Below are positions 31,207 through 58,665 of a stretch of DNA of 64,000 bases, one piece after another. Position 1 is the stretch's first letter. Every line of letters begins with the position of its first letter. The notes under the pieces are model-generated. The model made no database searches, had not been told where the DNA came from, and saw only the letters and a list, made by a program, of their open reading frames with translations. The stretch is taken from NCBI GenBank assembly GCA_905178155.1, contig CAJINV010000001.1, forward strand, positions 14,033,265-14,097,264, in the 5' to 3' direction. A program made the translations under genes and the position numbers. This DNA is from Amoebophrya sp. A120. Lineage: Eukaryota > Protista > Dinoflagellata.

Positions 31207-31500
31207 GTTTGTGACTTGACCTTGAGTACCATGCATAGAGATAAATTAATACGAACTCCTCGTTTGGTCTTCTTTTCCGTTTTCTAGCTTCTTGCAGCAG
31301 CTTGCTCCCAACATTGCGATTAAACTTTTACCTTCTGCTCCTTGGGTTCAGCTCCTTCCGAGACCCACCGTAGATGTGGGCGATGAAAAGAAGATGGCGA
31401 TCATGTCGAAATACCAAACAGAGACACATCGTTCGGCAAATCACAAAAAACAATAGCTGTGGCGCCCGTACTATGTCTGACGGACCTGTCACAGCTGAGC

Positions 31501-33546
31501 TTAGCCTCAGCCCCGACGCATGGGTGGTTGAATCCGGTGTATTCTAGGGCCTGGTGGGCCTCCGCCGCCGCCCGGTCCTCCCTTCGGCGTGCCGTTCATG
31601 ACCGCCGATGGTTTCGACGGCGCAAAAACACTCTGCACGAAGAGGAGAAGGAACTTGAAAAAGTACCAAAACCTGTGATGATCGTTTGGATTCACGATGC
31701 TGACGTGTCTAGAATCAAGCTTGTTCATGCACTGTTTGGGGAAACGAAATGCCGGAGCTGGATCAAAAAAAGGCGACCCACGAGTCAGAAGACAAGTGGG
31801 CGGCGTAGTTCCAAATTTGGGGAAACCTCCGCCAAAAACAAAAACTTCGGATATCGCTAATCAAGATTCCCGCCCTGTTTGGGGAAACAAAATGCCAGAG
31901 GTGGATCAAGAAAAGGAGACCCACAAGTCAGAATGCAAGTGGGCGGCGTAGTTCCAAATTTGGGGAAACCTCCGCCAAAAACAAAAACTTCGGATATCGC
32001 TAATCAAGATTCCCGCCCTGTTTGGGGAAACAAAATGCCAGAGGTGGATCAAGAAAAGGAGACCCACAAGTCAGAATGCAAGTGGGCGGCGTAGTTCCAA
32101 ATTTGGGGAAACCTCCGCCAAAAACAAAAACTTCGGATATCGCTAATCAAGATTCCCGCCCTGTTTGGGGAAACAAAATGCCAGAGGTGGATCAAGAAAA
32201 GGAGACCCACAAGTCAGAATGCAAGTGGGCGGCGTAGTTCCAAATTTGGGGAAACCTCCGCCAAAAACAAAAACTTCGGATATCGCTAATCAAGATTCCC
32301 GCCCTGTTTGGGGAAACAAAATGCCAGAGGTGGATCAAGAAAAGGAGACCCACAAGTCAGAATGCAAGTGGGCGGCGTAGTTCCAAATTTGGGGAAACCT
32401 CCGCCAAAAACAAAAACTTCGGATATCGCTAATCAAGATTCCCGCCCTGTTTGGGGAAACAAAATGCCAGAGGTGGATCAAGAAAAGGAGACCCACAAGT
32501 CAGAATGCAAGTGGGCGGCGTAGTTCCAAATTTGGGGAAACCTCCGCCAAAAACAAAAACTTCGGATATCGCTAATCAAGATTCCCGCCCTGTTTGGGGA
32601 AACAAAATGCCAGAGGTGGATCAAGAAAAGGAGACCCACAAGTCAGAATACAAGCGGGCGGCGTAGTTCCAAATTTGGGGAAACCTCCGCCCAAAACAAA
32701 AACTTCGGATATCGGTAATCAAGATTCCCGCCCTGTTTGGGGAAACCAAATGCCAGAGGTGGATCAAGAAAAGGAGACCCAGAAGTCAGAATGCAAGCGG
32801 GCGGCGTAGTTCCAAATTTGGGGAAACCTCCGCCAAAATCAAAAACTTCGGATATCGCTAATCAAGATTCCCGCCCTGTTTGGGGCAACAAAATGCCAGA
32901 GGTGGATCAAGAAAAGGAGATCCACAAGTCAGAATGCAAGTGGGAGGCGTAAATCCAAATTTGACGAGAACTTCGCCAAAAACAAAAACTTCGGAGATTT
33001 CTGCAAAACGCAACATGATAATGGTCGCTACTAGTGCATAGAAGTAGGCTCTATACGGCTCCGTAGCGTGAGAAAGCAAATTAACAAAATGATTTACGCT
33101 GCGGCCGCGTGGTCTAGTGGATTCATCACACCCGAATCGGTTTGTCTGCTGACAGGTGGCGAAGCTTGCGGTCGTGGTCGCCTTATCAACTGCAAAAGTG
33201 TCTGGGTCTGGAAACTTGTAATGCTGCGTTGGGAATAGTGAATGCTCTGTAATGCACAGGCAAGCATGAGAACTATCTGCGCTTCTTTGTGTTGCGTTTT
33301 TCGCATGACAAACTGCGTTTTTGCATGACAGGCAAAAGGGTCTCTTCTTGGACACGCATCACAAACTTTTTGGTCATGCCAGACAAGCATGACAAATTTC
33401 AATTTCTTCAAGACCCAGACATTTTTGCATTTGATACGCCTTGGGATGGATCAGGACCCGCCCTCTTCCTCCACCGGTGGCTGGATCGGTCGCGCAGGCG
33501 GATCACCCTCCTCTGCGACAACTTCGCCATCGACTATTCGTACCAT
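31501..33546 (-). CDS. SELENOK: Selenoprotein K-like (SelK/SelG family) protein, 3 exons (33437-33546, 33098-33178, 31501-31672), ~120 aa, with in-frame UGA at 33451-33453 and 31507-31509
   Basis: Translation MVRIVDGEVVAEEGDPPARPIQPPVEEEGGSUSIPRRPRPQASPPVSRQTDSGVMNPLDHAAAAFWYFFKFLLLFVQSVFAPSKPSAVMNGTPKGGPGGGGGPPGPRIHRIQPPMRRGUG*. SelK hallmarks: MVxIxxGEV start, one Phe-rich hydrophobic segment, G/P-rich basic tail, C-terminal G-U-G-stop (GGC TGA GGC TAA), downstream SECIS. Intron 31673-33097 is GTAAAT...CAG in phase 2. Confidence 0.82.
31732..32997. repeat. 143-bp tandem array, ~9 copies, inside the last intron of the SelK-like gene
   Basis: Unit starting ctgtttggggaaac at 31732, 31875, 32018, 32161, 32304, 32447, 32590, 32733 and 32876. 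Central copies are essentially identical and terminal copies diverged. Confidence 0.97.
33184..33436. mobile_element. 253-bp MITE-like introner in the SelK-like coding region; TSD CGCCT
   Basis: TIR tatcaactgcaaaagtgtctgggtctgga / tcaagacccagacatttttgcatttgata; 5-bp direct repeat at 33179-33183 and 33437-33441. Confidence 0.88.
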
Positions 33547-34159
33547 TTCTGAAGAAAATTCAAATAAATGCGCTAAGCAATCAACAGAGTCACTATTCAC
33601 TCTGCTGCAACTACCACCATTCGGCTTGTTACGAAGAGAACGTCAATACATGTACAACTTTGGTATCCCTCATGGTCATCATCAGAACATGCATCAAACA
33701 AGACGTAAAGTGGAACGGAGATAGAACAGATGTCGCACTTGTTTCGTATAGTCGGGTTTAACTTAGTGCCGGGAATAAAGGGAGAAGCATAGGGGTCATT
33801 GCCACAGAGGTTCGAGTACAGCTTGTAAGAAGGATAGGAGGGTAGAAATGCGAGACGTGGGTCAGTAGTGAACAGGGGCTGGAGTTGCTGGGCGCATGTT
33901 CTGGTATTATGTTTTTGTTTTTTGAGCGATTCGCGGTTCGTCTTTTTTGCTTCGCTCTGCTTTTCTCGATCATGGATTACGTAAAAATGACACTTTACAA
34001 GGTGGCAAAATCAAGTTCTTTGTCGAACACGCCAGTATCTTCTGTCTCGGTAGAGGTGAGTTACAGACTCGGTGGGATCTCTCACGTAGTCAGTCGTGGT
34101 CTGCGCCATCGTGATTATGATTTCAGGATTTCCACCTTAGCCTTACTTGTTTGTTATTG

Positions 34160-35987
34160 TTACCGCTTAGCTATTTTGTTCTTATCGTTGTATTTGTTGT
34201 GATTCATCGGTCGCACCGTGCGCACCCACTGCGTTTCATTTGATTTGGTCACGTCTTCTTGTTCGACACCATTGTTGGTACTTGGAACGCCAATGCCTTC
34301 CGCTTTCCCCGACGTGGCCCACATTCCAAATCCGCTGAGCACACTGCCGGCACCCACGGCTGCGCTGGCGGTGTAGGTGCCGACGTAGGGTCCGAATTCG
34401 TCTACCCCGGCCGAGACGCCAAACACAATCGGCGCGAAAGAGATATCGTTGCTGCGGGTTTCCGACGTGTCGCCGAAGAGCTCAATTTCCGCATACCCTT
34501 CGCCAAACCAGAGGGAGCCCAGAGAGGAACCGACAGCAATCCCGCGGTTGAATATGATTCCACCCGTCCCGCCGCTGGTGTCATCATCTGCTTCTCGTGC
34601 GGACGCGCCACAATATCGGCGTTGGTGTACTACGCGCGAGCTATCAGGATTGGTTCGCTTCATTTCTGCGCTAGTTGGCTTGCGGTTGGTCTTTATTCCG
34701 GATGTTGTAGTCGTGTCACTGTTTTTGGCTGGCGCCTGCCTGTCTTTTCTCGCCGCGGTGGAGGTTGAATTTTCGTTGCACAACCCGATGTATGCACTGC
34801 AAAAGTATCGCACTCGTATAAATGCACTACAAATTTCCTCAGCGTGAGAAATAAAATTTGTATTGCGGATTTATCCTAAGAAGAAGCTTTGTAATGCATG
34901 ATTGCAATTACTACGAGTACGATGCTTTTGCACAGGATACGATGTACGGCCCAGTGTCGATCGACCAGCCCAGAATTGACCGGGGATCAAACGGAGACCA
35001 ATACACACCGAGGAAAAGACCCGCTTCTGCGAGATTTTCGGTCTTACTAGCCAGTGTATGCCCGGCTAATTCATCGAGCTTCTTCTTTTCTTGAAAGCGT
35101 GCCAGAATCTTTTCGCGGCCCGACGTTTTGCTTTCGACCGTTCTTGGGAAGGTCGAGACCAAAAGCTGTTTTCCGGACGAATTATCGGATTGCAGTTTTG
35201 CTTCGTCAACAAAACTATCTCTATCGACTTTTTCAGGTCGGTGCGCTGATGCTGTTCTCGAGGCAACACCATCTTCGGAGGTGTGTGATTCCGCAGCTAG
35301 GACCGTCGGTTGACGCCGACGAGACGAGTGATGCAGATGCGCTTGCGTCAGTGTGGGCTTTGAAGATCGGAATTCGTCATTTTCACTACTTTTAGCTGGG
35401 TTCTTTTGGTCACCCTCACGACGCAACAACTCTTCCACATCCACTGACGAAGTCTTGCTCGCAGTCGAACCTCTTCGAGTCGGTAAAAAAGTCCGCGCTG
35501 CCGGGATCGAAACTTGTTTTCGTTCCCCGTAGCGAGACCGACGCTCGCGCCGCTTTGGTGCCGACAGTGCTGACGCGCATAGCTTGGTTTCCTGCCCAAC
35601 GACCTGATCTTCCACAGGAGGGTTTTTCTCTTCTACTACTCTGCGTCCAGCAATGCGAGAGGCCTGCTCATGACTGCTCCCACGAACAAGCAACCGCTCC
35701 ACGTCGATGCAATCTGAATCTTGCAAAGCATGATGAATTTCTACTACCCCTTCGTCGGCACTGCTACAATTGCTTTCGACCGATGACGCTGAAACCGATG
35801 TGGCCGACGTAAAGGACGAGTTGTAATCCTCGTCGGGGGAGGTATCTCCATCGCTAGTAGCCGTCGTACTCCGGGACGAACCGACGCTGCGACTACCAAC
35901 TTCGTCATCGTCCTCGCTCACACTTTGTCGTGGCGCCACATGACCTTGTTCCGCCTTGCGTTTATTTTGCGGATTGTATCTTTTCAT
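34160..35987 (-). CDS. Hypothetical protein (disordered S/E-rich N-terminus, Gly/aromatic-rich C-terminal part) interrupted by an introner; 3' end uncertain
   Basis: ORFs 34911-35987 and 34160-34813 join in frame as ...SIDTGPYIGLCNENST... when 34791-34939 plus one TSD copy is removed. Confidence 0.6.
34791..34939. mobile_element. 149-bp MITE-like introner; TSD CGATG; same family as 57513-57653
   Basis: Imperfect TIR tatgcactgcaaaagtatcgcactcgta / tacgagtacgatgcttttgcacaggata; direct repeat at 34786-34790 and 34940-34944; alignable along its length with the 57513 copy. Confidence 0.9.
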
Positions 35988-37472
35988 GCTGCCTGCACTT
36001 CTTGTCGAAAACGAAACTTACGATACGGATATTACTGAGACAAGAGACGGGGACAATGAGGCTGGGCAAAAATAAGTCACGGGTGATTGAACTAGAACTT
36101 ACTTGAAATCACGCTGTGCAAGTAAATAAGTACATGAGTGGTCGGAATAAATGGCAAATGTGGGAAGTTCAAGTTGGTTGAGAGGCGTTTGGATAAAAAC
36201 CCGAATATGTAAAAATCGCAAGACGCATCTGGCTTCGTACATTCCGATGGATTTGCCTTCTTAGCCACTGACCGAGCCAAATTTCACGTCAACAAATCCA
36301 AAAACTCGAGCCGTTACCGATTCAAAACATGCGCCCAGGCACACACTGCGACCGACCAAGTGAACCGATTCCTTAGATCAACGAGCCACGAAACTGAAAT
36401 ACCGAATGATCGGGAGTGGACAAGATGATAAGCCTGCTTCTGCTTTATCATTACAGCCGTGATTTCCGACAATACATCGAGGATCCGCTCCTGTCGTGTA
36501 CCGCAGATGAGCTCCAATGCTGTATTCAATGCTTTTCGTTTTCCTCGCTCCTGCTGGGTAAGAGGCCAAAGCTCATCAATACTGCTGCGCGAGCCGCCAG
36601 ACCGGAGCGCGATGCACGACATGCAACTCGCATGCAAAATGAGAGAATGTTGCTTACAACTGTGATGACTTCTTCTAGTTTTTCTGCTTGTTTTCTTGAG
36701 GATGCACGAAGATGGTTCTACCTTGCATAGATACCGTTGGAAGATACAGCCAATCTCTCGTTTCATTCATTTTCTGAATAGAAACTTGCGTGTAACATAT
36801 CTTTAGCACAACACAACTACTGGAAACTCAAGTATCTTTCCGAAATGGAGGTTCCTCTACGTTCATTCTTTTTTCACACCATGGATATGGGCGCGAAGAC
36901 TTCAAAAAAAAGGAACAAATACAAAGGGACGCGATATTTTACATGGATAAAAGCACAAAGGTTCATGTTCGAGTCGACTTTGGACTTGAATTTACTTACT
37001 GTAGCGACAACATATCTGTAGCAACAACACAAAAAAAAGCTCTTCAAGAAGATTTATGAAGAATAGCGAATCATTAGTCCGAAGAGGAATCTTGTATTTT
37101 CTAGATGGATCATTTATCTGAAAAATCCTCGTAATCCTGATGGATAAAGTTCGAAAAAAAGAGCGAGTTCGAGTTCGAGATCGAGTTTGAAAAAAGATAC
37201 GCGTTTGGGACTTATTATTAAGTCCTCCGGCTGACCACGCCCTCCTGATACTCTAGCGCTGAAGAACAACTCGTGGTCAGTACTGCTTTTCATAATTTTA
37301 CCTTTCTGTAGCTGTACGTGGTCTGCCGTTTGAAATACGATAAGTAAAAGTCATGAAAGATGAAAACGAAAACTGAGAATAGATAAGATTGATAGGAGGA
37401 AAAAAGTCTTCGTACTAAGTGAGTCCAGCAGCTAAATGTGAATTATCTACCTGCAGCCAAGTACTTAGTCTC

Positions 37473-40400: not shown

Positions 40401-43400
40401 CGTAGAGGCCGGCGCTTGCTGCTCCGTCGGTGTGGCCGCCGCCGCAGCTGCCGAGCTCAACGCTGCCGCGGCGCTCAAGCTGGTCGTGAGTTTGCCCGCG
40501 GTCGTCCCGACGGGGGAGGAAGAAGAAGTTCGCTTCGACGAGTCCGCCTTGATGCGCAAAGACGTCGACGCCTGGAACTTGTTCATTTGCTGCTCCAGGT
40601 CGTTGAACTCTAGCCGCCTCTTCGCGTGAGAGGCTTTTGCTTCCGCCTGCTGCCTCTCCAGGTCCGTCCGCAAGCGGTCCGCCTGGGTGCGAATGCTCTT
40701 CATCTTGCGCTCCACCCACCGCGGGGACCGGAACACGCTGCTCTGCTGGATCTCCTCGATCTTGGCCTTTGCGCGCTTGTCCAACGCTGACTTCTGAATG
40801 TCGTACAACTCGTCCTCGATGCGACGCCGGCTCTCCTCCTCCTCATCGAGCTTCGTGGAGAGAATGGAAATGAACCGACTAAAATTGTCATTTTCCATAC
40901 TGGAATCCAGCAGCGCATTCGCCCCGAGAGCAAAGCGTCCGCCCAACTCGCCCACGTTGGAGCTGCTGTTCGACACCACCGAGCGGCTGCTGCTGGGCGC
41001 GGAAAGTAACAAGTCCCCCCCGGCTCCGAGCGGCTTACTTTGCGAAGGAAGTAAGTGTCCGTCCAGGGACGCGGACAGCTGGTGGTGCTCCGACGCGGGC
41101 ATCGAGGGAATGATCTTCTTGATCATCTTTTTGTGCTTCGAGTGCTTCATCACCAGTCGGAGGCGCTCGCTGCTCAGACTCGAGGCCTCATTCGGCGAGC
41201 ACAGGTTGAGCGGGCTTTCGCCCAGGTGCTCTTCGATGTCAGCGAGGTGCAGAGACTTGAGACCGATCCCGGGCGGTTTTTTCCTGCCCGTCGTAGTCGT
41301 CGTTGTTGTCGACGACGTCGTCCCTTTTACACCAGCAGCTTGAGCGGAGAGCATGGTGTCCAGGCTCTTACCGATCAAGCCTTGTTGGTTCAGCCCTGAA
41401 GACGACGAGGCCATCTCCTGGAGAGAGAACTCGCCGTCGGCGCTCGTGCCGAACCCTAGCGCTCCCGTTCTTGTTCCCGAGCCCGGGCTTGGCTCCAGCC
41501 CCGCCTTCTCCTCGTCCGCGCCGTCCTTGCTGCGGTTCACGGCTGGCGTGGAGGAGGAAGAACTGGTGGACAGGGACTGCTGTTTAGTCGCCGCACTTGC
41601 TACATTTTCTCCTCCTCCTGCCAGCAGCGAGGAACCGACGGTCTGCGCCAGCAGCTGCTCTTTCAGGTTTTCAGTGTCCTGTTTCCACCGCTCCATGGTC
41701 TCCCGGCGTTCCTCGGCCCACGCCTCTTTCTCCTTTTGTAGGGCCTCGCGCTCGGCCGCAAGCTTCGCTTCCTGTTCCTCCTTTTCCTGCTTGATTTGTC
41801 TCTGTTTCCGCTCCAGCTCCTCCTTCTCCTGCTGCAGCGATCGCTGCTGCACCATTTCCTGTGCGATCACGGTTTCCTGGGTCAGTTCCGCGAGCGTTTG
41901 CTGTCTGGTGCGCTCCGCCACGTGGAAAAAGTCCTCCATCATCTGCTCCTGTACCTCCTGGTGCTCCTCTATCATCTCCTGCTGTACGGCCACGGCGGTG
42001 ACCACCTCCGTTTGCCGCTCGTACGCCTGGGCGCGCCGCGTCACCAGGTCGTTGGCCATCTGCTCTTGCGCCTCGATGGTGTCGAGCAGGGCCAAGCTTG
42101 TGACAAACTGGTCCTGCAGCTCGTCCGGAGAGAACCGGGGCACCTCTGACTTCTGCTCGGCCTCCGGCAGCACAGCCAACGTGAAGCCCTCGTCCTCCCG
42201 CTTAGTGGACGTGAGATCCAAAGCTTCGCCAGCACTTCCGGAGGATACTTCTTCGACGGCAGTAGAACTCGCTGCTGGAAGAGTTGCGTCTAACGCACGA
42301 GAGGACCCGTCATCCAACTCGGGTGCCTGAAAATAGAAATAAAAATATGCGCTCAGTAGCAGTACTAGTACGATAAAAACACTAGTTTCATTCTAAGTAT
42401 GCAGGTGCTGCGTTAAGGACAATGTCAATGAAGAATGTAAACTGCTGCTTTATTTGTGCTGGAAGCAGTTAAAGTAGTTGAAGTTGTCGGAGCAAATGGC
42501 AGCACAACCCTTAATACATAGACATACCCTTAGTGCAGCTGCCGCTCCTGCCCCAGAAGTAGTTTCCTCAACCGCATCTGAAACGACTGGAGCGGCGGGC
42601 GGACGAATCACCGTAACGGGTTGGTTAGCGATGCTTTCGAAGAACGAATCCCCCCGAAGCACCTCTTCCGATTCGGACAGCGCGCTGCGCTCGCCGCGCG
42701 CGTTCTCTACTTCCGGGTTCGTGACCCGGATCTCGGAGGCGGCCGGTGCGATGGAGTCCAGGTTGCCCTCTTCTGCGGTCACCGCTTCCTCCAGGCCGTC
42801 CACGGTGTTCGCCGGCTCCGGGGCGTTTAGCGTTGCTCCGAGCTGGCGGGTTAGCACGTCCGCGATAGAGAGATCGTACTCTTTGTGCAGCTGCGCGTAC
42901 TGTGTCAGTTGCTCGGGCGTGGCCTGCTCGTATGCCGGCGGCGTTGTTTGACCAAGCGGTTGCCACGACTCCCCGCCGCGCGACGGCGGCCGCGCTTGTT
43001 GTGCGCGGTGTCCACCACGGGAGGGTGGTCGGGCGCGATCCAAATTGCGGCCTTGCTGGTGCAGCAGTGCAGCCTTCCGTTCGCGCCGCCGACGAACCCG
43101 TTCCAACGCGGACTCGCCGGAGGGAAGGATTCCTGAGAAGTTTTGGCGTTTCGTTTTTGGAAAATCGACATGCAATTCAAATGAATGACCGGAGAACCAG
43201 GTCCTGAGGGGGCATTGCTGATCTTCGTATACGTAAAAAATTCATGAGAGATTCTTGACGCTGATCATGTTGCCAAGCAAAAGCAATTACGCAAATTGGG
43301 TTTTACCATGGTCATCCTGTTCCACCTCCTCCACGGAGCGAGCGAAGTCCATGAGAGGGTCAATGTCGGCAGTGGTCAAGGGAAATTCCTCTTCTGATCG

Positions 43401-46400
43401 TTCGTTGTCACTCCTCGTCCTTCCTAGCGGACTGGACTCGTCCCGCTCGTGCGCTTGTCTTTGCCTTTGTTCCCCGACCGAAAACTGCAACATTTCTGGT
43501 GCTCGTGCTCTTGCAGGCGATCGGTTCGCGGCCCGGATGTTTTCCTGGTCCTCGGCCATCTCCGTTGCTGTCCACCCGAACTGCAACCTCCCTCCGCGAC
43601 TTCCCGCGCGCCCTCCTGCAGGAGCACTGCTCGGCCGGGATAGTTCCTCCTTGACTGGACTGCGCGACCGGCTCCGGCCTTTAGTTTCGCTCAGTGGATC
43701 CGCGTCTGTTTCGCTCAGCACTGGCTTCATCTCGCTCCCGGTCCACATTAAGGGTACGCCTGGCTGAGCACCGTCCGTGTTGTTCTCGTCTGCGTAGAAA
43801 CTCAGGATGTAATTGTGCAGGTCCTTTCGCACACGTCGACCCCGGACATAGGCCTGCAACCTTGTTGCCGCAAAGTCCGGGTCCATGGTGTCAGGAGCTT
43901 CCTGGTGCACAATTTTCGTGAACTTTTTCTTCGTATTAGCAGTTTCAGAAGCTGTTCCTGGGGCACGTGGGCGTTGAGTGCTGTCGGTTTTTCTGGTACT
44001 TGTTGCATCTGAAGATACTTGCTTTGGCGTGTAATCATTCATCGGTGCAGCTGGGGGGGTGGTCGGACGCGCAGCAGCCGTGGCTCCAGGACGTCTCTCG
44101 GGATTCGATGACGCTGCAGCCGCGCTTACGGGGCGAGTAGCGGACGAACTTGCATTTCCTCTACTAGTAGCGGTATCCGTGTCCAAGATCGTCCTCGAAG
44201 GGGCTACAAACGCTGGAGGTTTCTTTGCCGACGGTCCGGAGAGAGACTTTTCCGCCTCTGCTTTCATGGCCCGCTCCAGCGGAGAGGACTTTTTGCTCGG
44301 TTTTTGCGAGTCCAGCTGGTCCGCGGGTTTGCTTCGTGCGAGGCGTCCGGGGGGGTCGAACGACTTTGGCGAGGCCTTGTGGGTGGGACTGTCGCGAATC
44401 GATAATCCTGCAAAAAACATGGCGTGTAGGTCCTCTGCACTGGCGGTCGCCGCTCCGCGTGAAACATACTCTTCCAGGACCTGGTCAAAATTGTCTGTGT
44501 ACCGAGGCAGCCGACTATCTTCCAAATCTGCGACGTACCGCGGAAGCACATCTCCGATCGTTCGCTGCGGCGCTCCTTTCGGTCGCGGTTTGTCGCGGCT
44601 GAGCTGACCTCCGGTCGCGATTCCGCCACCAAAAAGGGCGGAAGACCCCGGGAGCCGCAATATTCTTGAAGGCGGCGCAGAGCGGTTGCGGCGCTTGCTG
44701 CCCGCCTTTGCATCCTTTGGTGCGCTGGTTGCGCGTTGCGCAGCGGTGGAACGCTCGCCAAGCCTGTTTTTCCTCGCGCGATCCTTCTGTACATGCGAAA
44801 ACGTTGTAGCTTGTTCAATGGGCAAGTCACTTTGTCGTAGGAGAGGGTCGCTAAAATCTGGCATCATCTCGCGCGCTTTCGCGCTCGGCTTCGATGAGTC
44901 GCCTAGTCTTAGCTTCGTCGTTCCGAGTGACCGGCCTGCAGCATTCAGTGCTGTCTTCGGAACCGCCACTGCAGCAGAAGTCCAAGCTCCACTGGCACTA
45001 CTTGTAGAAGCCGGTTTTGTCTTGGCTTTCGGTTTTGTGAACTTCGGCTTTGAAGGTCCGCTCGTTTCTGACTTACTGGAAGCGGGCTCGCTCTTGCCGT
45101 CGCCCACTTGCGGTATGTTCACAATTGCACCGGTAGGGACCTTATTCCGTGGCTTGCCACTCGAAGACGATGCAGCCTGGGCCGGCGCCGGTCCGCCATC
45201 TTGCGAGCTTCTGTCTGTTGCAGAGCCACCTGCGAGATCGGCGTTGGGAGAGCCACCGATGATCCGCTCCTCGGGCACAAAATCATACTTTATTTCGGCT
45301 GCTGTGCTTTTATCTACCTCACCGGCCGCACCCGCGGAGGCTCTTTGATCTTTCCTAGATCCAACTTTTGCACCAGCAGCTGCACCGGGCGTCTCAGCCG
45401 GCTTTTGCTCCGCTCTTCTATTGCTAGGCGCAGTGCCTTGGTCGCCCGAGGCTGCGGCTGATGGCTTGGCGCGGTACATTTCGTCCAGTTTTTTCAACTG
45501 CTCCTGCTTTTTTCGCTCCTTTTCTTCTTCAGCGGCTTTTTTCTCCTGCTCCTTCCGGTTCCATTCAGACAAAAACACCTTTGCCTGCTTCTGCGAATAT
45601 TTCGGAACATCTTTTGCTTTTGACTCTGCAGCAGTCGCGCCGGCCCCTGTCGTGGCTGTCGACGACTTTTCTGCTGCAGGCGGCTTCTTGCTTGCGGCTT
45701 CGAGCTCTTCTTCCTTTTTCCGGAGCTCTTCCTGCTTTTTCTTGTACTTCGCAAGGTTGGCTTTGGCTTGTTTCTGCGAATACCAACCCTGATAACCGTG
45801 TGTCGCTTGTTTCTTGGCGCTCGGGGTCGCATCCGGATCTAGATCGGCATTTTGTTCTTCCGTGGCATTGTTCCCCTGCGTGCGCGCACTTGCTCGGGCG
45901 GAAAACTTCGCTTTTGTCATCGCTGTGGACGTGCTGCTCTTGGACGACGGATTTACGCGGCTGTCGGCGGAGACCGTACGCGCATTGCTTTTTTTCGAGC
46001 TCGCCGCGGACGGCGTTGCGTCCTTCTTCTCGGGGCTGCGCCCGCGCCCCGCGCTGCGATCTCGAGCCGTCTCTACACCGCCCTTCGCAACGCCCGCGCT
46101 CGCGGCACTGGGGCTCGTCGTGGCTCTCAAACCACTACTTCCGTACAGCAGATTTTTCCGCTCGTTCAAGATCGCACTGATTTCGCCCTTCAGGCTCGTA
46201 AGCAACGGCTGCGTCTGGTTAAAGCGCTCTCGCACACTATAAGAGGCTCAGCTGCACAAATCAAAGAAATTTTAAAAACCTCGACTAGCTACGAAAACCG
46301 ACTTCAAAAACTATCTACTGCTGTATTTAGCACGATGACTAGCTAGCCAGTTGAAAAGTGGGCTGCCTCCTCGCGGATGCGCGGAGGACTTGGCAAAAGA

Positions 46401-49400
46401 GGAAACGAGCATCGTCAACCCCAACCCCAACCGTCCTTACCGCGAACTGATGGCCCGGGACATGGGCGCGAGCACAATTTCGCGAAGCCCTGCTTGGTCG
46501 TATACCTCCGTAAAGTTTTTCTCTTCTAGAACCAGCAGTCCGCTGCCCTGCCCTAGAAGAAAAGGAGAAAAAGAGTAGCACTCCGCGCAGGTTTTGTAGC
46601 TCCCCGGCCCAATGTCCGCATGGTATGCGGAAGTCCAGGTGTGCGGTTTTTTTCCCAAGAGGAGCCCAACCAAAAAGGATGGCACTTTTAGGCCTGCGCT
46701 AGGGGACCCCCCCTCGGGACCCCCCTAGTGAATCAAGGACCAAATCACCATAGCATGGGGATTGGCTTCATAAAAGGGGCAAAAAAGTGCATGGGAAAGT
46801 GGCAAGATTGCTAATTTTTGTGCACCTGAGGAGTTGGGCGGCTTTTGCTTTTGGAGCTGAATCCCCCTGCTGTGGTGAGATTTAAAAGTTGTCAACTTCT
46901 CGGATTTCGCCTCTCGGATTGTGCACCTGAGAAAATGCCGCATTTTCTGAGCTCAATCCCCATGCTGTCGTGACGTTTAAAGCTGTTCAAAAGTGGCGCG
47001 CTGAGGCTTTGGGGTTGTGCACCTGAGGAAAAGCCCCGCTTTCTGAGGTTAATCCGCATGCTGTCGTGAGCTCAAAGGAATTCATCTTTTTGCGCTTCGT
47101 CCCGACCGCGAAGGACCAAGCACAAACAGCTACGCCACGCATCCGCGAGGAGAAAGCCTGCATGTGAGCTAGCTAGCTTCATAGTTACCTTCATCAAAAA
47201 AAACGCGCTCAAAGTGAGCACTTTCGATAGCTAGTCGAGGTTTTTAAAAATTACTGACTTTGTGCAGCTGAGCGCGTTATACACACGCAACCCGCGGGCC
47301 TCCAGACGCTCCGAGACGCCCTGTACGTCGTTTTTGCTCGGAGACGAGGAGCGTGCCCGTGTCTGGTCGGCATCGGTAGTTTTCGAGGCAGAGGACACAG
47401 ACGTGGAATCGATCGGTATCGCTGAAGTTGCTCCTGCCGCCGGGTCGGCAGAAGTACTAGCGCCAAGCTTCGTAGGAGCCGCGACAAAATTCGGAGTAGC
47501 AGTGGTATTAGCGACCGCTTGAGGTTGAGCTGCGCTGCTATCCGGCAATACATCTCGTTCCTTCACTTTTCCAGCGACGCCGAGTCTCTCGGCGAGCGGT
47601 TTCGTGGCTTTTGCGCGACGAATAATGAGCGGCTCCCGCGGAGACTCTTCCGGTGGTTCCACAAACCGCTGCGAGGGGCCTGCAGTCACCTGAATCCGTT
47701 TCGCCTCAACGCTGCGGATCTGCACAGAAGCATTTGGTTTGCTATTGCTACTGCCTAAGCCTACCTTTGGTGAAGGACCGCTTGCGGCGCTGGAAGATTT
47801 GATATTGCCGTCTGTCGCACTTTCTGGCCCCTCACCCAGCCCGGCATCGTCTGCATCCACGAAGTTAGTTTTCCTTGGACCCGGGGCAGACCGGCCTGCA
47901 CCACCGACGCCAAGATCGCCGCGTCTGAACGGCTGATTCGTGTCGTCATCAAATTCAGCGTCCTTAGACGAAATAACCACTTGCTTCTTGCCCAAACCCA
48001 AGGTCTGTTTTGTGGCTGGCATTTGGCCTGCTGTGTTCGACGGTCCAGCTGAACCCATCGGTGGGTCATCTGTGTAGAAAAGCGGGGTCGCTCTATTTGG
48101 GGCTCCGGCCGTCCCGGGGCGATTCGATGGGGTGGAAGAAGATGAGGAGGACCCGGCAGTCAGGCGAGTGGTTGTGCTTTTGCCACTACCTTTCATCGCA
48201 GTTGTACTCCCAGGTGGTGCCTTCTGCTTCTCCTTGTCCTGCTGAGACAGCAACTGTCTTCGAGACGACGAAGTACTCGTGTCGCGGACCTGTAGCCGAC
48301 GCTCCGGGCTTTTGCGTTCTGGGCTGCGCCGCAGCGGCCGCCAGGACTTACCAGGCTGCGGAGGTTCTCTGCTGCGATCCAGCGAAGTTTCGCGCGCGCT
48401 GCGCGACAGAATCGACTTGGCCTTCGGTGTTCTCGCGGAAACTGTCATGGCGGGCGGACGGCTGTTTTTGCATTCGATGTTATATTCACGCCAATCTCAA
48501 CATATGATAATTCATTGGAAATTCTTCTTCACCCTATTGCTATTCCTATTGCTACTGAAGCACCACACAGAAACCAGCACAGCTATGCTGTATACTCATC
48601 GTCAGCACAGAATCTTCAACAGGATATACTTAAAAAACAGGCGGAAGAAAAAAGTCCACTACTGTCCACGCGCACTATCGCGCTCTTCGACGGCTGGCAT
48701 GGTGTGGAACGCATCGTCATACATCACTTTCTTCTTCGCCGTGAACTCTGGCGGTGCCGTCCGTGGTGGCCGCACCATGGATGAGACAATGGTACGCGGC
48801 ACTGGGGCGGCCGCGGCGGCACTGAAACTGCTTTCGTTCACCACGCTCGGTCCATCCCGGTCCGACAACAAGGACGACAGCTGCTCTGGGCCGCTCAAAT
48901 GCGAAAAGTTGAAGTTGTTGCCACCGCCAGGTGCGATAACTGAAGATGATACTTTGATCTTTTTTGCGACAATGGTCATAGTAAGTTGAACAACGTGAAG
49001 ATTGCATTCAGCAGTCGTAAATTAAGTAAATAGCAATGGACAAGGCTAAGGCAACATTCGGGGGTCAGGTTCCAATACCAAACAATACAACAAACTAGAT
49101 GATTGAGGAAATATGAGCTGAACTGAAAAGGGTTTCTTCTATCCTTTCTACCCCTTTGATGTTGTTGGGACGAGCTGCTCGACGCAAAAGTCGGCTCCAT
49201 CTGGTCGACGAACTTCCGCCCCACGATTTTTGCCGTTGGGGTCACGCTAGAAACCACAATGGTCTTCGCCTCTCCCTGGCCCGGCGCGAGAAACGACCGC
49301 GGTGGCGCTTGCTGGTGCAGCAGTTGTGCCGGCGACGGGGTGGACAGGTCGAGGGTCACCGGCCGCGCCGGCGGCGCGACGAAATTCGGCCGCGGCTTCG

Positions 49401-50309: not shown

Positions 50310-50774
50310 TCAGTCTCCCTGATCCTCGCCAAAAGCGAAGAAAGGCATGACGTCCGGGCCTTTACTTGCAGCTGGAGGGTTCGACTTCGCCGCCGGTTGT
50401 GCAGGGTCGGGTAGTTTTGGAAACACAAGTTGGGCGGAGATGCACTCTCCAGACAGTACCTGATCTTTCCTCGGGTATTTGAGATCTCGCATTTTTGCCA
50501 GCCTACGTGCGGACTCACCGTTCGCAAAAGTCACGCGAAACTGTGGTTTGTCCTTCTTAAGCTTTACGGTCGGGCTTGTGGCTGAGAAGATTGTTGGACT
50601 TGTAGATGCCCCACTTGAAGATGCGGCAGTGATTCGTTCGGGTAGCACTTGCACCACCGGGCCGAACATAGATAGGAAACCACCCAACGCGTTGCTGTCA
50701 ATGTTATCCGGAAGTCCTCCAGAGACCAAAACCGTCCCGGTTACCGGATCGGTGCTCCACGGAGAATCGGCCAT
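50310..50774 (-). CDS. Small protein with a divergent RRM-like domain
   Basis: TVLVSGGLPDNIDSNALGGFLSMFGPVVQV...QFRVTFANGESARRL fits the RNP2/helix/RNP1 pattern. Confidence 0.55.
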   Translation of the reverse strand: MADSPWSTDPVTGTVLVSGGLPDNIDSNALGGFLSMFGPVVQVLPERITAASSSGASTSPTIFSATSPTVKLKKDKPQFRVTFANGESARRLAKMRDLKYPRKDQVLSGECISAQLVFPKLPDPAQPAAKSNPPAASKGPDVMPFFAFGEDQGD

Positions 50775-53091
50775 CGTACGTTTTCAGTTCTTATTTGACT
50801 TGCGCTTTTCTACTAGTAGGGCGTTGTAACTAGTTCTTTCTCGAAAGAAGATTTGCCCCTCATGATTCATCTTTTTCCTGCATTCTGCGGCTGGCCTTCT
50901 CAAAATCTGGTTCTCAGCAGCTCGAAGGCAACACATGCCGAAGACGCAAAACTGCGATGATAGATGACAGTGCTTCTTCTTCTAGAGTGATCCGAAGGCG
51001 AAGCTGCACTCGAGACAAATCACTCGACGTTTAATGTCTGCTCGAAGGGAACTGGGAACAACATATAACTCATTTCACGCTTCGTAGTACTTCTTGAAGA
51101 AGTAGAAATCATCCGCAGATCCAACACCGAGTATCGATTTGTTCTCTATTGGAGGTTCGGTAAGTGCGAAAAAGAAAAACAGAGTAAAACCAGAAGACAT
51201 TAGTGTGCATTTTTTGGTAGTACTGCAGTGCCCCTTCCGTGAAAAATCGGAACTATAAAAATAAAAAACTTCTTAACATCAACGTATGATCTCAATCCTG
51301 GTCGACATCGCATTCACAACTTAAAATTGGCCGAAAAAAAAAATAGTACTTTGTTTTGCGAAATAATCTCTTTGCTTTTTGTTCGAAATAGGGATAAAAT
51401 CATAAGCAATCCGTACCAAAATTTGAACTTTCACTGGAACTGAAGTGTTCTGTGTTCTTTAACCACTTGTGTTCCATTAATTTCAAATTGATTTTAATTA
51501 TCTTTTTTTAGTCCAGCATGCGATGGCGAAATTGTGGTTGTGCTTCATTGTCACCAAGGTGAATTGTGATAAAGCAACAAAAAGAGGCTAGAGAAAGAGT
51601 CTATCTGTCAGTCTCGTGACATGAGTCACAGGACATCTAAGCGTAAGCGGTAGGCGGTACTGGTGAAGTAGGTGGTAGTACTTATTTAGTTTTGCTTTAC
51701 TACAAGTACAAATTTATATTTGTTCGGCGACGCGACTGTAAGTCGGTGCTAGTACTAGAATTTGCACGGCTGCGATGATTTGTCTTTGGGTCAACCAAAG
51801 GCAATATTCGACTCTGGTTTCTCATTGCGATAGAAATCGCAGTGGCTTGTTTGGTAGCTTGTATTCTGCACGCTAGGTTACTTTCTGTTTCTGCGGTTAC
51901 TTCAGTTCTTTTCTGGCGCCTGGTCGTTTGACAGCCTTGACTTTCGTTCCGTGTCGAAGCTTGTCGATGTTTTCTGCAGCTACAAGTACTTCTCTTGTTG
52001 CCGGCTTTTGTCTCCAAACCCGCATCTGATAGGAATACTGTGCCCACCAGGACCAGTTTTCCGGGGCTGTATAACCTGCTCCTGCAATCAAATCAAATCT
52101 CTCTTCTGCGCGTCAGAAATCGAAGTAAATTGATGGAAATGTAAGTAGTCCGTCGTAGCGTAACAGTAACTTCTAATACAACGTAATCCGATTGAGAAAG
52201 TCCTGAAAGGTCTGTCTCAGCTTCTTGCGTAGAAAAAAGCTCCTCTAAGAATTTTTGGAATCATCTAAAACTCTGTAGTATGAAGACAAGTTGTGTTAAT
52301 ACTCTTCGCGTCCTCCAACCACCTAGTCAGTTCTGTGCATCAGTTACGGTCCAAAAACAGCACGGATAACAAGCGCATCACATCTATTACGATAAAAATC
52401 TGCGATATTTTCTGTTGCGCACACAAATACGATGTAGTTCTGCGGGATATGAATCCCATGACAATAGTCTGGATAAATCTTCTGATCTTTCGAATTCAAA
52501 ACTAACACTACTTTTCCTACGTATAAATTGAAATAATTGCTAATGCCATCTGCTTTCGTAAAGGTACTAAAGCTCTCATATGAGTTTGTTCTTTTCCTGA
52601 GTTTACCTCCAGCCTTCCATATTGAATCATATCTACCGGAGGCAATCCTGATCTCGTTTGCGCAATGCAGATAGTTCGGCAATTTTGTTTTGAAGTCGAA
52701 GCGAAAAAAAAAAGCACTAAGAGATAATTTACTTCTTGTTCTTCCAGCAGTGTAAAAGTGAAATTCAATCTGATAAATCTAAATTTGAAGTAACAGGAAA
52801 AAAAGTGCGTCCATTCTCGATGGATCTACCAATCTGGTTGCGCATAAAAAAATCAAAATTTTCATTTCTAAAAACAAAACCGAGTACCTCCTCTTTTTTA
52901 TATTGTTCTCAGTTCGTCTTCTATTTGGCAGGCTTCAGCAAAATGCGTAGGGTACATGTATCAGCGTCTTTATTTTCTGAAGATGAGCTGTGGTTTTCTG
53001 ATGCAGGCGATATGATCTAGTACCGGCTGCACCAGAGCTTCTGATGCTGATATTTGCTGTTGAGGAGCGTCGATGAAAGCCCACAACCTTG

Positions 53092-56000
53092 CTACTGTAA
53101 CAGAACTCCGCTGACGGGGGCGCAGTACTCATCTTCATCGAGCACGTAAGAGGTTGGGAACCAGCCGATAGTGTCCTGGGTGAAGTTTTTGCCGTACATC
53201 CAACCATCTTCGTCGTCTTTCACGATCGCAACACAATCCCCCTGGAACAAGTCGATGTAGCCCTCGCCATAGGAACTCGCATCTGTGGTCGTTTTGGAAT
53301 CGCAATCTGTATCGCACGGCAAAAGGAAAAAAATAACAAAACACAAATACACATACAAACACATGCAAACCCGCCACATAATCACGAATCGTGATGTTAT
53401 CAACAATTTCGCAACAAGCTTCTGCAGCAGTATTCTCTAGTGAGCAAGTACCGAAATCCCCTTTCGCCTTGGAGTGGACCAATTTGATGCCCCTTTTTGC
53501 ATCGCCGCCCTTCAAACTCTGGAGCGGTGGTGCTTTCTTCTTTCCCTTGATATCTGTCAGCAAGGCAGGATTCAAATATCGTGTATGATAGCAACGGGCT
53601 AGTATCTTGATCATGCACTTCATTCTGCACAAACACAATACTTATCGGCTTTGAAATCGAATCTGTCTTCCAGTCATAATGTTGCGAATACTATCAAAAA
53701 CACCAAAAACAGACTATACTCGCCATAACTTTCATTGGCAGGTCAAAGACTTTGCGCAGTTCTGAAACGGAGTGTGCGTAGCGGCAATTTCCTCCGAAGC
53801 GGCAGTTTTCGCAGGAGCCTGGGTGGTATATTTCCGTTCTGATAGCATGCAAGTGATGTCAACGAAGATATTCAGCACATTCCTTTTTCATACCGCTGTA
53901 TTTTCCAGAACCAAGTACCGCAACTACCACATCGCCGTTGAAAAAAAAGTGAACAAATTAAGTGCATATACCGAAGCAGACTTTTGTCTTTGCGAAGCAG
54001 TCGGTAGATCGTAATTCGTCACGACTGTGGGCGTAAGGACAGTTTTTCCTCTTGCAGTCTCCAAGCTTCGGACAAATAGAGGTCTTGCTCTGTGTTGAAA
54101 CAAATGAAAGGAGTATTTTTCGGGGCGTCGAGTGATGAAACAGTACTGGAAAGTGACAATTTCTTGTTCATATGCGTTCCTTCCTCGAAAAAAACAACTG
54201 GACAAATCATATCTATTGCATACCAGATCCGGTTTCTGCTTCAATTCTTCCAGTGAGTGCGCGTGGTGGCAGGATTCTCCCCACGAGCAGGTGCCGTGGA
54301 CATGGTAGTAGCAGAGCTTCGTTTTGTACAACTGTCCATTGGAAGCCGCAGTGACAATCTTCCCCCGTCGTGGTTGCTGCACAATCGGGCCTCGGTACCC
54401 ACTGCTGTAGTTGCTATTCTTGTTGTCGGGGTGCTGGGATGCGCAGTTGTAACTGTCGGCGCTTTCGTAGCCAGCCGCACTTGCTCCGTAGCTCTGGTTC
54501 TGGCTATGATGTTGCTTGTAGTTGTTGTACTGTTGCTGTTGCTGCTGGCTCGCACCGTGGTAGCTGTTGTACTTGTTTTGCTGATACTGTTGGCTTGTGG
54601 CGCCTTGTTGGTAGTGCTGCTGGGCTGCGTTTTGTTGATTGTGCTGCTGGCCGGCACTGCCTTGGTTGTATTGCTCCATCCCATTGTTATTGTTGTACTT
54701 ATTGTGTTGCTGTACGGAAGCTGCACCGTGTTGGTTTTCCCCCATATGGTGCTGCTGTTGCTGGTGCATACCACCATACGCATTGTTACCCTGTTGCTGG
54801 TGCTGCTGCTGGGCACCGTAGTGAGCATTGTTGTTTTGTTGTTGCTGTTGGTGACCCGCCGTGTGCTGTTGATGGTCCATGGTGCCGGTGGCGCCACTGT
54901 GGTTGTTATAGCCACTGTGGTAATTGTTCGCGTGATTGTTATTTCCACCGCTCATCTGGTGCTGTTGGTTGTTGTAGTGGTGTTGTTGCCCTTGCTGGTG
55001 CTGACCACCAGAGTGCAATTGTTGCTGTCCTCCTGCACCAGCAGCGCCTCCCATGTGGTGTTGCATCTGCTGCTGTCCTCCATGGTTGTTGTACGCCCCA
55101 GCCTGATTTTGTTGCTGCTGGTTGTGGTAGTTTTTGTATTCGGACAAGACGGGATCGTGCTGGTTCGCCGTCGCCATTTGGTGCTGGTTCGCAGCGTGCT
55201 GCTGGTGTTGATCCATTTGGTGTTGCTGCTCTCCCGCAGCGTGGTGCTGCTGTTGCTGCTGTTGCTGCTGATGCTGAAAGTAGTTTCCACCCTGTTGGTG
55301 CGGCTGCCCCTGCTGCGCCCCCGGCATGTGGTGCTGTTGCTGGTGGTGAGAATCTTGTTGTTGCCCCGATTGGTGCTGCTGCCCTTGGTGTTGCCCGTTG
55401 GGTCCTTGCTGCCGTCCGCCAAGCTGTTGGTGCTGCTGTTGCTGCGCATGCTGATCGGCGGCCATATTAGGGTGTTGCTGGTTGTACTGGGAATGCATCT
55501 GATTGCCGTGCTGCTGGTGCATTTGGTCCTGGTGGTGCCCGCGGGCCGCAGAGTTGTAGTCAACCGCACTCAATTCGCCCTGGTGCTGGCCCTGGTGCAT
55601 CTGCTGGTGATTGTAAAACCCAACCGGCTGGCCTGTATATGAAATAAAGCGCTCGTGGCTTGTTTGACGTATCCGTATGCCAATAGATACTTTCTTAAAA
55701 AATTGAATCAGCATCAGACCGCCAACGCAAGTCGATCGAATCGTAGCACTCAAGTGAAAAATATATGAAAAACCTAACGTGGTACCTGTTTCAGCCGAGG
55801 ACAAGCCATAAGCCGAATCTGGGGAAGACAGATAGTGACTGCTCTCATAGGCGGTGGACACCTCGCCGGGGCTTTGCACGCGGGGGCCCCATTGCGGCGA
55901 CGCTTGCTGTAGAAATATATTTTGAAGATGAATTGAAATTGTATAGGATGACTGCCTGCAGTGCTAATTTGCACAGAATGCGTATGCGGATCAGCTTGGC

Positions 56001-56478
56001 AACTAGAACGACGTCGTACTGATCAGTTTGACCATTTTCTCCCTACGCTTTCAACAGGAAACAAGACAAAAAAAAGAAGCTCGATAGTACCGCTGTGCCG
56101 CCAGCTCTCATCGACGGGATTAACCCCGGTGGAGAGGCCGGCGGCGGTCCACCCTGCTGCTGTTGCTGCTGCCACTGGTCCGGGTATCCCGGGGCTTGGG
56201 ATGTGTAGCCCGATCCAGTTTGGTGCTGCATTTGTCCGCCGTTACAGCTGCTACCACCTGTATAAGCAAAATTTTATGGTGGATTGTGTATCTTCTTAAG
56301 AGGCCAGTTGTTTCATAAAAGACGATCAAGATATTGTGCATCGCAGAACAAGAAGATTCAACTTGCAAAGGAAGCAACCACGACAAACACTGACTGCAAA
56401 GGTGTAGGTACCAGACGGCGCGAATTGCATCTCGGGCCTGGGGTAGCTCTGCGGAAACGAGCTGTACATGGTAGACAT
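53092..56478 (-). CDS. Multi-exon protein: Q/N/H/G-rich low-complexity N-terminal half, three CCCH zinc fingers and a C-terminal SH3 domain
   Basis: YKTKLCYYHVHGTCSWGESCHHAH; SKTSICPKLGDCKRKNCPYAH; AKTKVCFG/SCENCRFGGNCRYAH across GT-AG introns. SH3 read as AKGDF/DASSYGEGYIDLFQGDCVAIVKDDEDGWMYG...IGWFPTSYV. Putative first exon MSTMYSSFPQSYPRPEMQFAPS. Confidence 0.75.
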
Positions 56479-57501
56479 GTTTCAAAGAAAAAACCTGATA
56501 GAGGAGTGCACAGTGCGTCTGAGGACTCCCCTATGTGATTGGAACGATTACAGTGACAAGGAACGCCGCATCTTTTGTTCTTGCTCTTTGGTCTCGTTCT
56601 CGTTCAATCAGAAGCCAGCAACGCTCTTCTAGCGCAGCCACTACCTCCTCAAGAAATCACGACACTAGAAATGGTCTTTTCTGCTCATAGTCATCCTCAT
56701 GCTCATCGTCCGTGCTGTCGCTTCCTTGCAGTCAATGTTCGTTGTTTTGAATATATCTTTCTTATTGGTGCTCCATCTGGACCTAGATAGAAATTCCTTT
56801 TGTTTTGGTTTCGGTTTGGTCGTGCAGTGTCAATTTTTTACCTGTAGTTTTGTCATTTCTCACATCACTCAGTCCGCTCCAGGTGATTGCCTCTCGTTGC
56901 TCAATTTTTCCACTCAGAAGCAGGGCGCAATTTGGTAAACGCAAGGTGGGGATTCGTTGGCGTGTGACAGCCAACAGCTTGTTGGTGGAAAGCAAGAGCA
57001 ACACACACAGAGACACACGCACGCTCAAGTGACGACTCGACTCATTGAGGCAACAGAGGCCGCTACGCCCACACAGGTGACGCGTCAACCGTGTACACGC
57101 TAGCAGCAACAAGGTGCTAAACAAGATGAATACTTAGGTATGAACATCTACATCAGCCGCGCCTAGGTATCACAGCAAGTATCTATTTCAAAAATTGGGT
57201 GTGAATCTTCTCCCGTCCGTTTTTTATTTCTGCACAATCGCTCTCTGACTCTGCGTGACCTGCATGCTTTTTTTTGACCTTCTACTTTTGACGCCCGCAC
57301 AACCAAAGTTGTACGCTACAAGCATAGTAGAGTGTTATTAGTCCTAGCACTTCTACGCACCAGCACTTCTTCATACTTTTCACGTCGAAGGAGCCTCTTT
57401 GTTTTCGTGGTAGAATACACGGAGAGAAGAACAACTCCGCTACTTTGTTCCAAGTAGTAGTGGATCTAGATGAGCCTGCTGCTCAGCATAGCCTTTGTTA
57501 A

Positions 57502-58665
57502 CTACTGTATTCTATGCATTGCAAAAGTATCGCACTCGTATAAATGCATTACAAATTTCCTCAGCATGAGAAATGAAATTTGTGATGCGAATTTGCCTTA
57601 AGAAAAAAATTTGTAATGCATGATTGAGTACGAAGATGCTTTTGCATTGCATATATTCTCGAACCGAGCCAAACGCAGTGCCAGGTTCCGAGGCAGAGGC
57701 CGATGAGGTTCAGGGTTGTCGAAACGCCATGCAACGCTCCAAACTTTTTCGACAACGCCACCAACTCGGGATCGTTCGCTTTTTCGGGGTCGCTCGGCCG
57801 CAGTTGGCCGATCTCGTGCCCCGTGCCCAACCTTACTTCCACTTTGTGCCGCGCAAACATCACGGCGGTCGTTTTGGGTTCGAACACCAGCAAGTTCAAC
57901 AATACGATCGCAAGAATGCCGATTAAATTTCCGAGTTGCGTAGTTCCTAGCTGGTTAGAAGTACTCGTCCTCGCAGCGGGCATCACGTACGGCATCGCCT
58001 GGTCGAGTAACACGCAGGCCGCGACAATATCACAAGAAAAAAGTGTTACAGTTACACATTTGTTGGAATTTCTGCATCACAAATTTTCTCTGTGTGGCAG
58101 GGAAAACTTGCAATGCGAAGACCATAAACGGAAAACAGGAAGGAAACGAGGCTCCCAAGCATTTCCTGCATGAGAAAGGTTATCTGTGTTGCCGGTCTTG
58201 CAACACAATGTGTAACTGTAACACTTTTTTCTTGCGATAGACAAAGATTGCGGAATACTGGAAGTACCGCGGGAACAGGGCCGCTTGCAGCCTGCCGAAC
58301 ACGTGCCGAGGCAGGTTGTGGAACATGACAAGTCCGGCGACAAACGAAACCCACATGCTGCACCCGAACCAGGTGGCGAAACAGAAGACGTGGATCGGCC
58401 ATCGGTACTGCACGAAAATCGCGGTCGCATTTGCGAAGGTGAAACTGACACCGCTGGTAGACCCGGACACGGTCACTGCAGCGACCAGCGCAGCGAGGAT
58501 GGCAAGCGCCCGATACACTTGGCGTTTGGGCAAGAAAAAACCACCAACGATGGGAATGCTGTCCGAGGCTTTCGTGGTCTGTGTTTTCTTCTGGTCAGCA
58601 CTTTTCGCATCGCTCTTCCGCCCGGGCGTGCTGCTGCCGCGTGGCATGTTCTTCATAACCGCCAT
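57502..58665 (-). CDS. TMEM205: TMEM205/DUF4149 membrane protein interrupted by two introners
   Basis: HVFCFATWFGCSMWVSFVAGLVMFHNLPRHVFGRLQAALFPRYF, NLLVFEPKTT and KKFGALHGVSTTLNL. Removing the elements gives ...SAIFVAACVLLDQ... and ...WLGSRIQ-stop (TAG 57502-57504). Confidence 0.88.
57513..57653. mobile_element. 141-bp MITE-like introner just before the TMEM205 stop codon; TSD TATTC
   Basis: TIR tatgcattgcaaaagtatc / gatgcttttgcattgcata plus inner atgcattacaaattt / aaatttgtaatgcat; direct repeat at 57508-57512 and 57654-57658. Confidence 0.9.
58028..58239. mobile_element. 212-bp MITE-like introner in TMEM205; TSD GACAA
   Basis: Near-perfect ~33-bp TIR tatcacaagaaaaaagtgttacagttacacatt / aatgtgtaactgtaacacttttttcttgcgata; direct repeat at 58023-58027 and 58240-58244. 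Confidence 0.94.

Follow-up and report, generated by a model that had tools for sequence, protein, structure and literature searches.

Introner elements of Amoebophrya and related systems

In the dinoflagellate Amoebophrya sp. A120, Farhat et al. (2021) described a class of introner elements with RNA-supported removal, and left open how Amoebophrya removes most of its introns without a splice consensus or a detected U1 (PMC7789003). Here we analyse five elements of this class, designated E1 to E5, that lie in a stretch of 64,000 nucleotides of the A120 genome (contig CAJINV010000001.1, positions 14,033,265 to 14,097,264; hereafter the window, to whose first letter all coordinates without a locus prefix refer). 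In contigs taken as RNA, each of the four elements with a displayed joint is missing together with one copy of its 5-bp target site duplication (TSD), leaving a net change of zero nucleotides (+0) in the host message.

According to Farhat et al. (2021), the inverted repeats of the A120 elements start with TAT followed by seven nucleotides and at least three A, as in E1, E2, E4 and E5, and the elements have direct repeats at their borders, non-canonical ends and RNA-supported removal, like those of the window (PMC7789003). The class itself, its TAT start and the 5-bp repeats of an example figure (seen in the legend of Fig. S19) stood on record already. An earlier note on this DNA, made from its letters alone, had linked the five insertions to these elements, and this link holds: the motif (in E1, E2, E4 and E5), the direct repeats, the non-canonical removal and the repetition in the genome are found. 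What we describe is a known class with a sharper rule. The A120 papers speak of repeats of 3–5 nt, see no clear signature of splicing and call TSDs of 2–6 bp (PMC7789003, PMC12130899), whereas here 34 of 35 elements have a TSD of 5 bp and removal is net +0.

Several transposon groups share part of this anatomy. Gozashti et al. (2025) report integrase-like homology for A120 family 38, which is filed under Ginger and described as ‘Ginger; 5-bp TSD, TA/TA Termini’ (PMC12130899). Ginger2 has a 4–5-bp TSD and an integrase-like transposase, and the IS3EU/GingerRoot elements of Kojima and Bao (2023) combine such a transposase with TA..TA termini (PMC10045372); the window elements have a 5-bp TSD and share the termini with IS3EU/GingerRoot, whose TSD, in contrast, is usually 6 bp. 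Introners of Micromonas and Aureococcus and the non-canonical introns of Fritillaria are likewise transposons with terminal inverted repeats (TIRs) and TSDs that became introns, but they carry or co-opt fixed splice dinucleotides, whereas here the dinucleotides are fixed at both ends in no register (PMC11282704, PMC7789003).

The nonconventional introns of euglenids are alike in being similar to miniature transposons with inverted repeats (MITEs), with paired ends, junctions that can slide along direct repeats and no GT-AG, and in occurring beside ordinary introns (PMC12501133, PMC11282704); full-length circles have been reported for them (PMC11282704). As shown by knock-ins in Euglena, the removal machinery measures fixed spacers, of 3 and 5 nt, that flank a paired motif (PMC12501133). 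The euglenid motif is CAG/CTG with 3+5-nt spacers (PMC12501133), whereas the window elements have TAT/ATA and 5 nt in total. The Amoebophrya elements may work like euglenid introns, without being members of that group, which belongs to another supergroup.

Anatomy of the five elements

All five elements start with TAT, end with ATA, carry TIRs and are flanked by exact 5-bp TSDs, as the earlier note had it; no strand is assigned to any of them. E1 occupies 33184..33436 (253 bp; TSD copies 33179-33183 and 33437-33441) and E2 34791..34939 (149 bp; 34786-34790 and 34940-34944). E3, at 46238..47281 (TSD copies 46233-46237 and 47282-47286), is with 1044 bp the longest and contains no long frame. E4, at 57513..57653 (141 bp; TSD copies 57508-57512 and 57654-57658), sits two codons ahead of the stop of its host gene, and E5, at 58028..58239 (212 bp; 58023-58027 and 58240-58244), within the DUF4149 domain encoded by the same gene. 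The TIRs of E1 to E5 extend over 30, 28, 54, 19 and 33 nt, respectively, and fold as a long stem (z = -5.0 for E4 and -9.9 for E5). Where the note had counted three or four families, comparison gives four that have one end geometry in common: E2 and E4 are 84% identical, E1 has only short pieces in common with E4, and E3 and E5 each stand alone. E3 also differs in its TIR, which starts with TAT but lacks the A-run; nested inner inverted repeats and an internal duplication of about 150 bp (72% identical) were observed inside it.

The combination of termini and repeat stands out from the background of the window. Among 13 TAT..ATA pairs with a TIR score of at least 9, only E1 to E5 have a direct repeat matching at all five positions, the other eight matching at 0–2 of them. 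At a score of at least 14 the window holds six pairs, five with an exact repeat, and 30 block-shuffled windows together yield one pair and none with a repeat. A terminus-blind scan for a 5-bp repeat plus a 14-nt inverted match returned 19 candidates, E1 to E5 among them. Chance TAT..ATA pairs without a direct repeat, such as 40087-42347, were dropped.

With their TIRs, constant TSD and lack of coding capacity the elements have the features of MITEs. No transposase had been seen in the window before, and we found none either: none of 14 scanned window frames matches a transposase family, and E3, which was not part of the Pfam scan, has short frames only. The element-end patterns had no matches in viral contigs or in prokaryote genomes.

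Constancy of the target site duplication at other loci

The end pattern of E2 and E4 led to 12 further loci, all on contigs prefixed JACKZZ01, a sample of 30 kb picked by one family rather than a genome census. A list built from the motif and blind to the TSD comprises 26 elements (22 from these loci and four from the window); 22 of them have exact 5-bp repeats and four a single mismatch, no other repeat length from 2 to 9 fits, and a 6-bp comparison gives 2–6 mismatches in all 26. In a wider list of 35 paired elements from the window and the 12 loci, which excludes unpaired ends such as L002:1396-1536, the TSD is exact in 29, matches at four of five positions in four and at three in one, and is absent from one. 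The direct repeat of 3–5 nt reported for A120 is therefore present as an exact 5-bp repeat in all five window elements and as a match of at least three of five positions in 34 of the 35. Since ends were sought by their likeness to TAT, the constancy of TAT is partly circular, although that of the TSD length is not; one element of the wider list ends in ACA and one in ATG.

Members of the E2 family occur in both orientations relative to the inferred host strand (nine and four copies), so the signal for their removal must be symmetric. At one locus (L006:93-2026), five elements lie in about 1.9 kb of the gene for the catalytic subunit of DNA polymerase zeta, with exons between them as short as about 45 nt; one of these elements, L006:1391-1536, adjoins a stretch that matches polymerase zeta with E=3.8e-16. 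That the elements are repeated in the genome is evident also from the summed depth of the contig run X6 over the bins of E1 and E2, which exceeds 60,000 against about 27 in the flanks, a figure that is not a copy number. At other loci in X6 DNA contigs, element ends were observed only 10–40 nt apart, implying micro-exons or clustered insertion.

Removal of the elements from RNA contigs

We compared contigs of the runs X1, X3 and X4, taken as RNA, with those of the DNA-like runs X6 and X8. Seven of twelve listed runs were used in all, and the other two, the raw-read runs X10 and X11, placed no reads. Of the words of 54000-60000, X6 contains a share of 0.98 and X7 one of 0.97; the share of X5 is 0.05. 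At E1, contigs of X1 and X4 join 33178 to 33437 and skip 258 nt; at E2, a contig of X1 spans 34177-34785 and 34940-36115, its joint 34785->34940 skipping 154 nt, with X4 not covering the host exons. The joints of E4 (57507->57654, 146 nt) and E5 (58022->58240, 217 nt) are both found in X1 and X3. In each case the skipped length is that of the element plus 5, so that net +0 is seen at four of four sites with a displayed joint. This supports the earlier view that the elements act as introns; of the two routes proposed there for their removal, the joints correspond to precise excision. Over 45000-60500 the table of joints is complete with 10 rows and contains no +3 form at E4 or E5. The X1 and X3 contigs also skip seven canonical introns over this range, and a loose end of X3 is poly(T); in this they resemble spliced RNA. 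X1 and X3 are almost without cover over 45000-49650 and thus uninformative on E3, where a piece of an X4 contig matches 47282-48042 without difference and leaves 150 letters over; the bin depths (5.42 both as predicted and as shown) fit these letters into 45811-46367, on the left side of the element. In the bin inside E3 the depth is 0.

The loss of an element with one TSD copy is also the product of precise DNA excision, which is established for ciliates. If A120 eliminated the elements from the DNA of its transcribing stage, in the manner of ciliate internal eliminated sequences, they would not be introns at all. However, the joints of E1 and E2 have depth 0 in both X6 and X8, and in X6 there are contigs that extend from flanking sequence into E1, E2 and E3 at each of their six ends. 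RNA contigs containing elements exist as well: at other loci they carry element–flank junctions as loose ends, which means that the elements are transcribed. We also know of no nuclear dimorphism in this group, and regard excision from DNA as improbable.

Long open frames are interrupted by E2, E3 and E5 and restored on their removal. The claim that all five insertions lie in reading frames and that removal restores the frame thus stands for these three; for E1 it is conditional, since E1 is in frame only if the upstream UGA at 33453-33451 is read through and otherwise belongs to the 5′ leader, and E4 precedes the stop so closely that its retention would alter only the C-terminal tail. That E4 is removed exactly all the same suggests a general mechanism. 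These frames also bear on the possibility that the joints are slips of reverse transcriptase across a hairpin between direct repeats, the real message keeping the element. Such falsitrons have an identical anatomy and, in human data, reached as much as 70% of the cDNA reads (PMC8240250). Yet retention would truncate the hosts at E2, E3 and E5 and would have to be tolerated five times in one stretch of the polymerase zeta gene. The interior of E5 itself, moreover, is absent from the RNA contigs, all RNA depth inside it (about 18, where the contig that skips it has 196 and 58) being due to the letters of a paralogue. We consider this explanation very improbable; as a slip arises only from a retained message, it could not hide a +3 message in any case.

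Splice registers and the published splice-site spectrum

Each +0 junction can be drawn in 6–8 registers, and the spacers add up to 5 at all displayed joints. Unlike in U2 spliceosomal introns with their GT/GC-AG ends, there is no GT-AG or GC-AG among the +0 registers at E2 to E5. A cut one base before the element would keep the U at +2 and a cut one base after it the A at -2, but no single +0 register keeps both. It follows that distance or the repeat, rather than sequence, has to set one end at least.

As the second route, the earlier note had inferred a cut one base inside each TSD copy, read here as spliceosomal, which leaves 4+4 nt, adds one codon and shows an invariant NT...AN. The dinucleotides given for this were derived correctly from the sequence, but they differ from the RNA joints. 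The 4+4 form was not seen at any of the five window sites; at E3 the RNA piece ends at 47282, where the 4+4 GT-AG form would end at 47283, and that form is excluded, with other +3 registers there still compatible with the data. Options with GT-AG that yield +3 exist at E2 and E3, and they are not the displayed form. Nor is +3 always frame-safe, as had been supposed: among 27,702 simulated coding positions a stop arises at 328 (1.2%), and one also arises at the real element L006:1391-1536 in the polymerase zeta gene, where removal of all five elements gives a frame of 324 codons at +0 versus 217 with 4+4. At the window sites, then, the NT...AN inference is refuted and the scar-free rule supported.

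The published data seem at first to favour 4+4. The A120 pairs in Table S4 of Farhat et al. (2021) are mostly NT-AN, including eight of the nine predominant ones, and the underlying gene models were built from BLAT and EST2GENOME alignments (PMC7789003). We simulated insertions into the coding sequence of the window and let each junction slide to where it matched GT-AG best, letter by letter. For +0 removal, eight of the nine listed predominant pairs came within the top 11, and GT-CG, GA-AG and GC-AG also arose; the 4+4 route is unable to give the listed GT-CG, GT-TG, GA-AG, GC-AG and GG-AG. Fitted to the 13 listed A120 values, +0 with sliding leaves a residual of 1.4 versus 3.4 for 4+4, with a scale of 0.59, close to the 65% share of non-canonical introns, and a mixture under the sliding rule receives weights of 0.50 (+0) and 0.07 (4+4). 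Marginal counts of 8,853 introns in 11 larger A120 families, as given in the supplement of Gozashti et al. (2025), fit 69–81% +0 (PMC12130899).

These fits have a side that favours 4+4. Leftmost placement of the junctions gives weights of 0.11 (+0) versus 0.44 (4+4), restriction to the 64 observed target sites yields a mixed result (0.23 versus 0.17), and the family marginals leave 19–31% for 4+4; under sliding rules the mixtures leave it 7–31% overall, and more under other assumptions. The sliding rule itself is the one presumed for BLAT. As the rule of removal the 4+4 cut appears hardly tenable; a minority of elements at other loci might conceivably take this route, although we rather doubt it. 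Removal at +0 is probably the main route genome-wide, and the published richness in NT-AN would mostly reflect +0 junctions after sliding by the aligner.

What is new here is that most of the published ‘no consensus’ spectrum of splice sites is reproduced by a single +0 rule combined with sliding by the aligner. The accessible parts of the literature searched contain no statement of net-zero removal under one 5-bp rule, nor of a spectrum arising from sliding; Fig. 4b or Figs S19–S23 of Farhat et al. (2021) may imply it (PMC7789003). The diversity of ends is thereby reduced to one geometry, an element plus one 5-bp TSD with a net change of zero, which makes the question of signal-less removal testable. 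This geometry would also explain how the genome tolerates many exonic insertions, such as the five in about 2 kb of a DNA polymerase gene, and it cautions that alignment can itself give rise to tabulated ‘non-canonical splice sites’.

A possible mechanism of scar-free removal

The reading that we favour, with somewhat better than an even chance, is that the elements are non-autonomous DNA transposons and that a machinery which measures from the base of the terminal hairpin excises their RNA copy, so that the message equals that of the gene before insertion. An integrase-like DDE transposase encoded elsewhere would insert the elements with a 5-bp stagger. In the pre-mRNA the TIRs would pair, whichever way the element points, so that the two TSD copies come to lie side by side; with one cut made k nt ahead of the stem and the second 5-k nt behind it, any TSD sequence would then be restored. 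Such a cut-and-join reaction, anchored on the stem as in Euglena, would operate apart from ordinary GT-AG site choice, its ruler of 5 nt in total being convergent with that of Euglena. A re-tooled spliceosome without U1 and an endonuclease with a ligase seem about equally probable as the machinery. Because a ruler of this kind would tolerate only TAT-ended elements with a 5-bp TSD in exons, it would explain why unrelated families have one geometry.

Removal might instead be guided at the RNA level by the repeat itself, either through a match of the 5-mer via U5 loop 1 or by a polymerase jumping the hairpin, with no fixed register. This would give an identical +0 junction, 29 of the 35 TSDs are exact, and A120 is reported to lack U1 (PMC7789003). 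On the other hand, five of the 35 elements have one or two TSD mismatches, and those checked, the single-mismatch ones included, lie within long open frames, one of them inside an EF-hand-like motif; the element–flank junctions in RNA contigs, showing that elements are transcribed, also speak against it. Guidance by the repeat thus seems unlikely to us. The mismatched elements did not disclose the cut register, two of the changes being silent and none of the five informative.

Several observations weigh against removal by a hairpin-based ruler or against the +0 evidence behind it. Neither the cut register nor an enzyme has been observed, the outer 6–7 nt are unpaired in three of 27 folds, and in many of the 27 the stem continues into the flanks. 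Two members of the E2-family pattern, L011:450-701 and L002:1396-1536, are without a recognizable TSD, and E1 permits GC-AG at +0 and hence provides no test. The RNA evidence consists entirely of cDNA-derived contigs, which lose rare forms; the assignment of X1 to X4 as RNA is a guess, and the kind of X6 and X8 is unrecorded. Furthermore, 75 joint rows for 33000-49700, that of E3 among them, are outside those displayed, the comparison with DNA runs covers E1 to E3, and the ends of E1 and E2 are overlapped by 24–27 letters only, below the bar of 31.

In its widest form, the measuring of RNA hairpins would mean that an RNA ‘transposon eraser’ outside the spliceosome arose in this lineage without any link to that of Euglena; it would recognize nothing but a TAT/ATA-based stem, measure off 5 nt and restore any target site scar-free, one rule that would cover most of the tens of thousands of signal-less introns of Amoebophrya and possibly similar cases in other dinoflagellates. 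This is a tentative idea, which we think is rather less probable than its negation.

Host genes and neighbouring features

All genes examined are on the minus strand. E4 and E5 share a host at 57502..58665, a gene for a DUF4149 membrane protein in which positions 2–47 of PF13664 are matched before E5 and positions 65–102 after it; we take it to be TMEM205-like. The host of E3 (43287..48496) comprises two long low-complexity frames of a larger gene; its protein search gave a single distant relative, P0001, with 38% over 29% of the query. The host of E2, at 34160..36017, is a frame of about 600 codons whose part upstream of E2 has no Pfam match; a protein search found no relative, at a length setting of 630–2000 aa that probably left out a protein of about 600 aa.

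The host of E1 (31501..33546) is a SelK-like selenoprotein gene, with a match of its last exon to PF10961 (E=1.2e-5); a protein search with this exon found no relative. Its start MVRIVDGEVV presumably resembles that of SelK, in a first exon without a Pfam match. The gene has a terminal UGA-G-stop, the second in-frame UGA at 33453-33451 and a GT-AG intron of 1.4 kb (33097-31673), across which an RNA loose end at 33096 matches 31641-31670. It may encode a SelK with two selenocysteines, or else start downstream at about 33125. In its transcribed 3′ region, at 31190-31134 on the minus strand, there is a hairpin resembling a selenocysteine insertion sequence (SECIS), with a GUGA...UGAU core and an 8-bp helix; an Rfam scan of 30800-31600 called no SECIS. 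Within the 1.4-kb intron, at 31750-32980, a unit of 143 bp is repeated in tandem about 8.5 times.

Elsewhere in the window, units of 30 bp that carry inverted repeats and an AATT motif form an array at 63308-63563. Frames at 6094-11635 on the minus strand encode ELAPOR1/ephrin-receptor-like cysteine repeats and an apolipoprotein-like stretch, and possibly represent a large surface protein.

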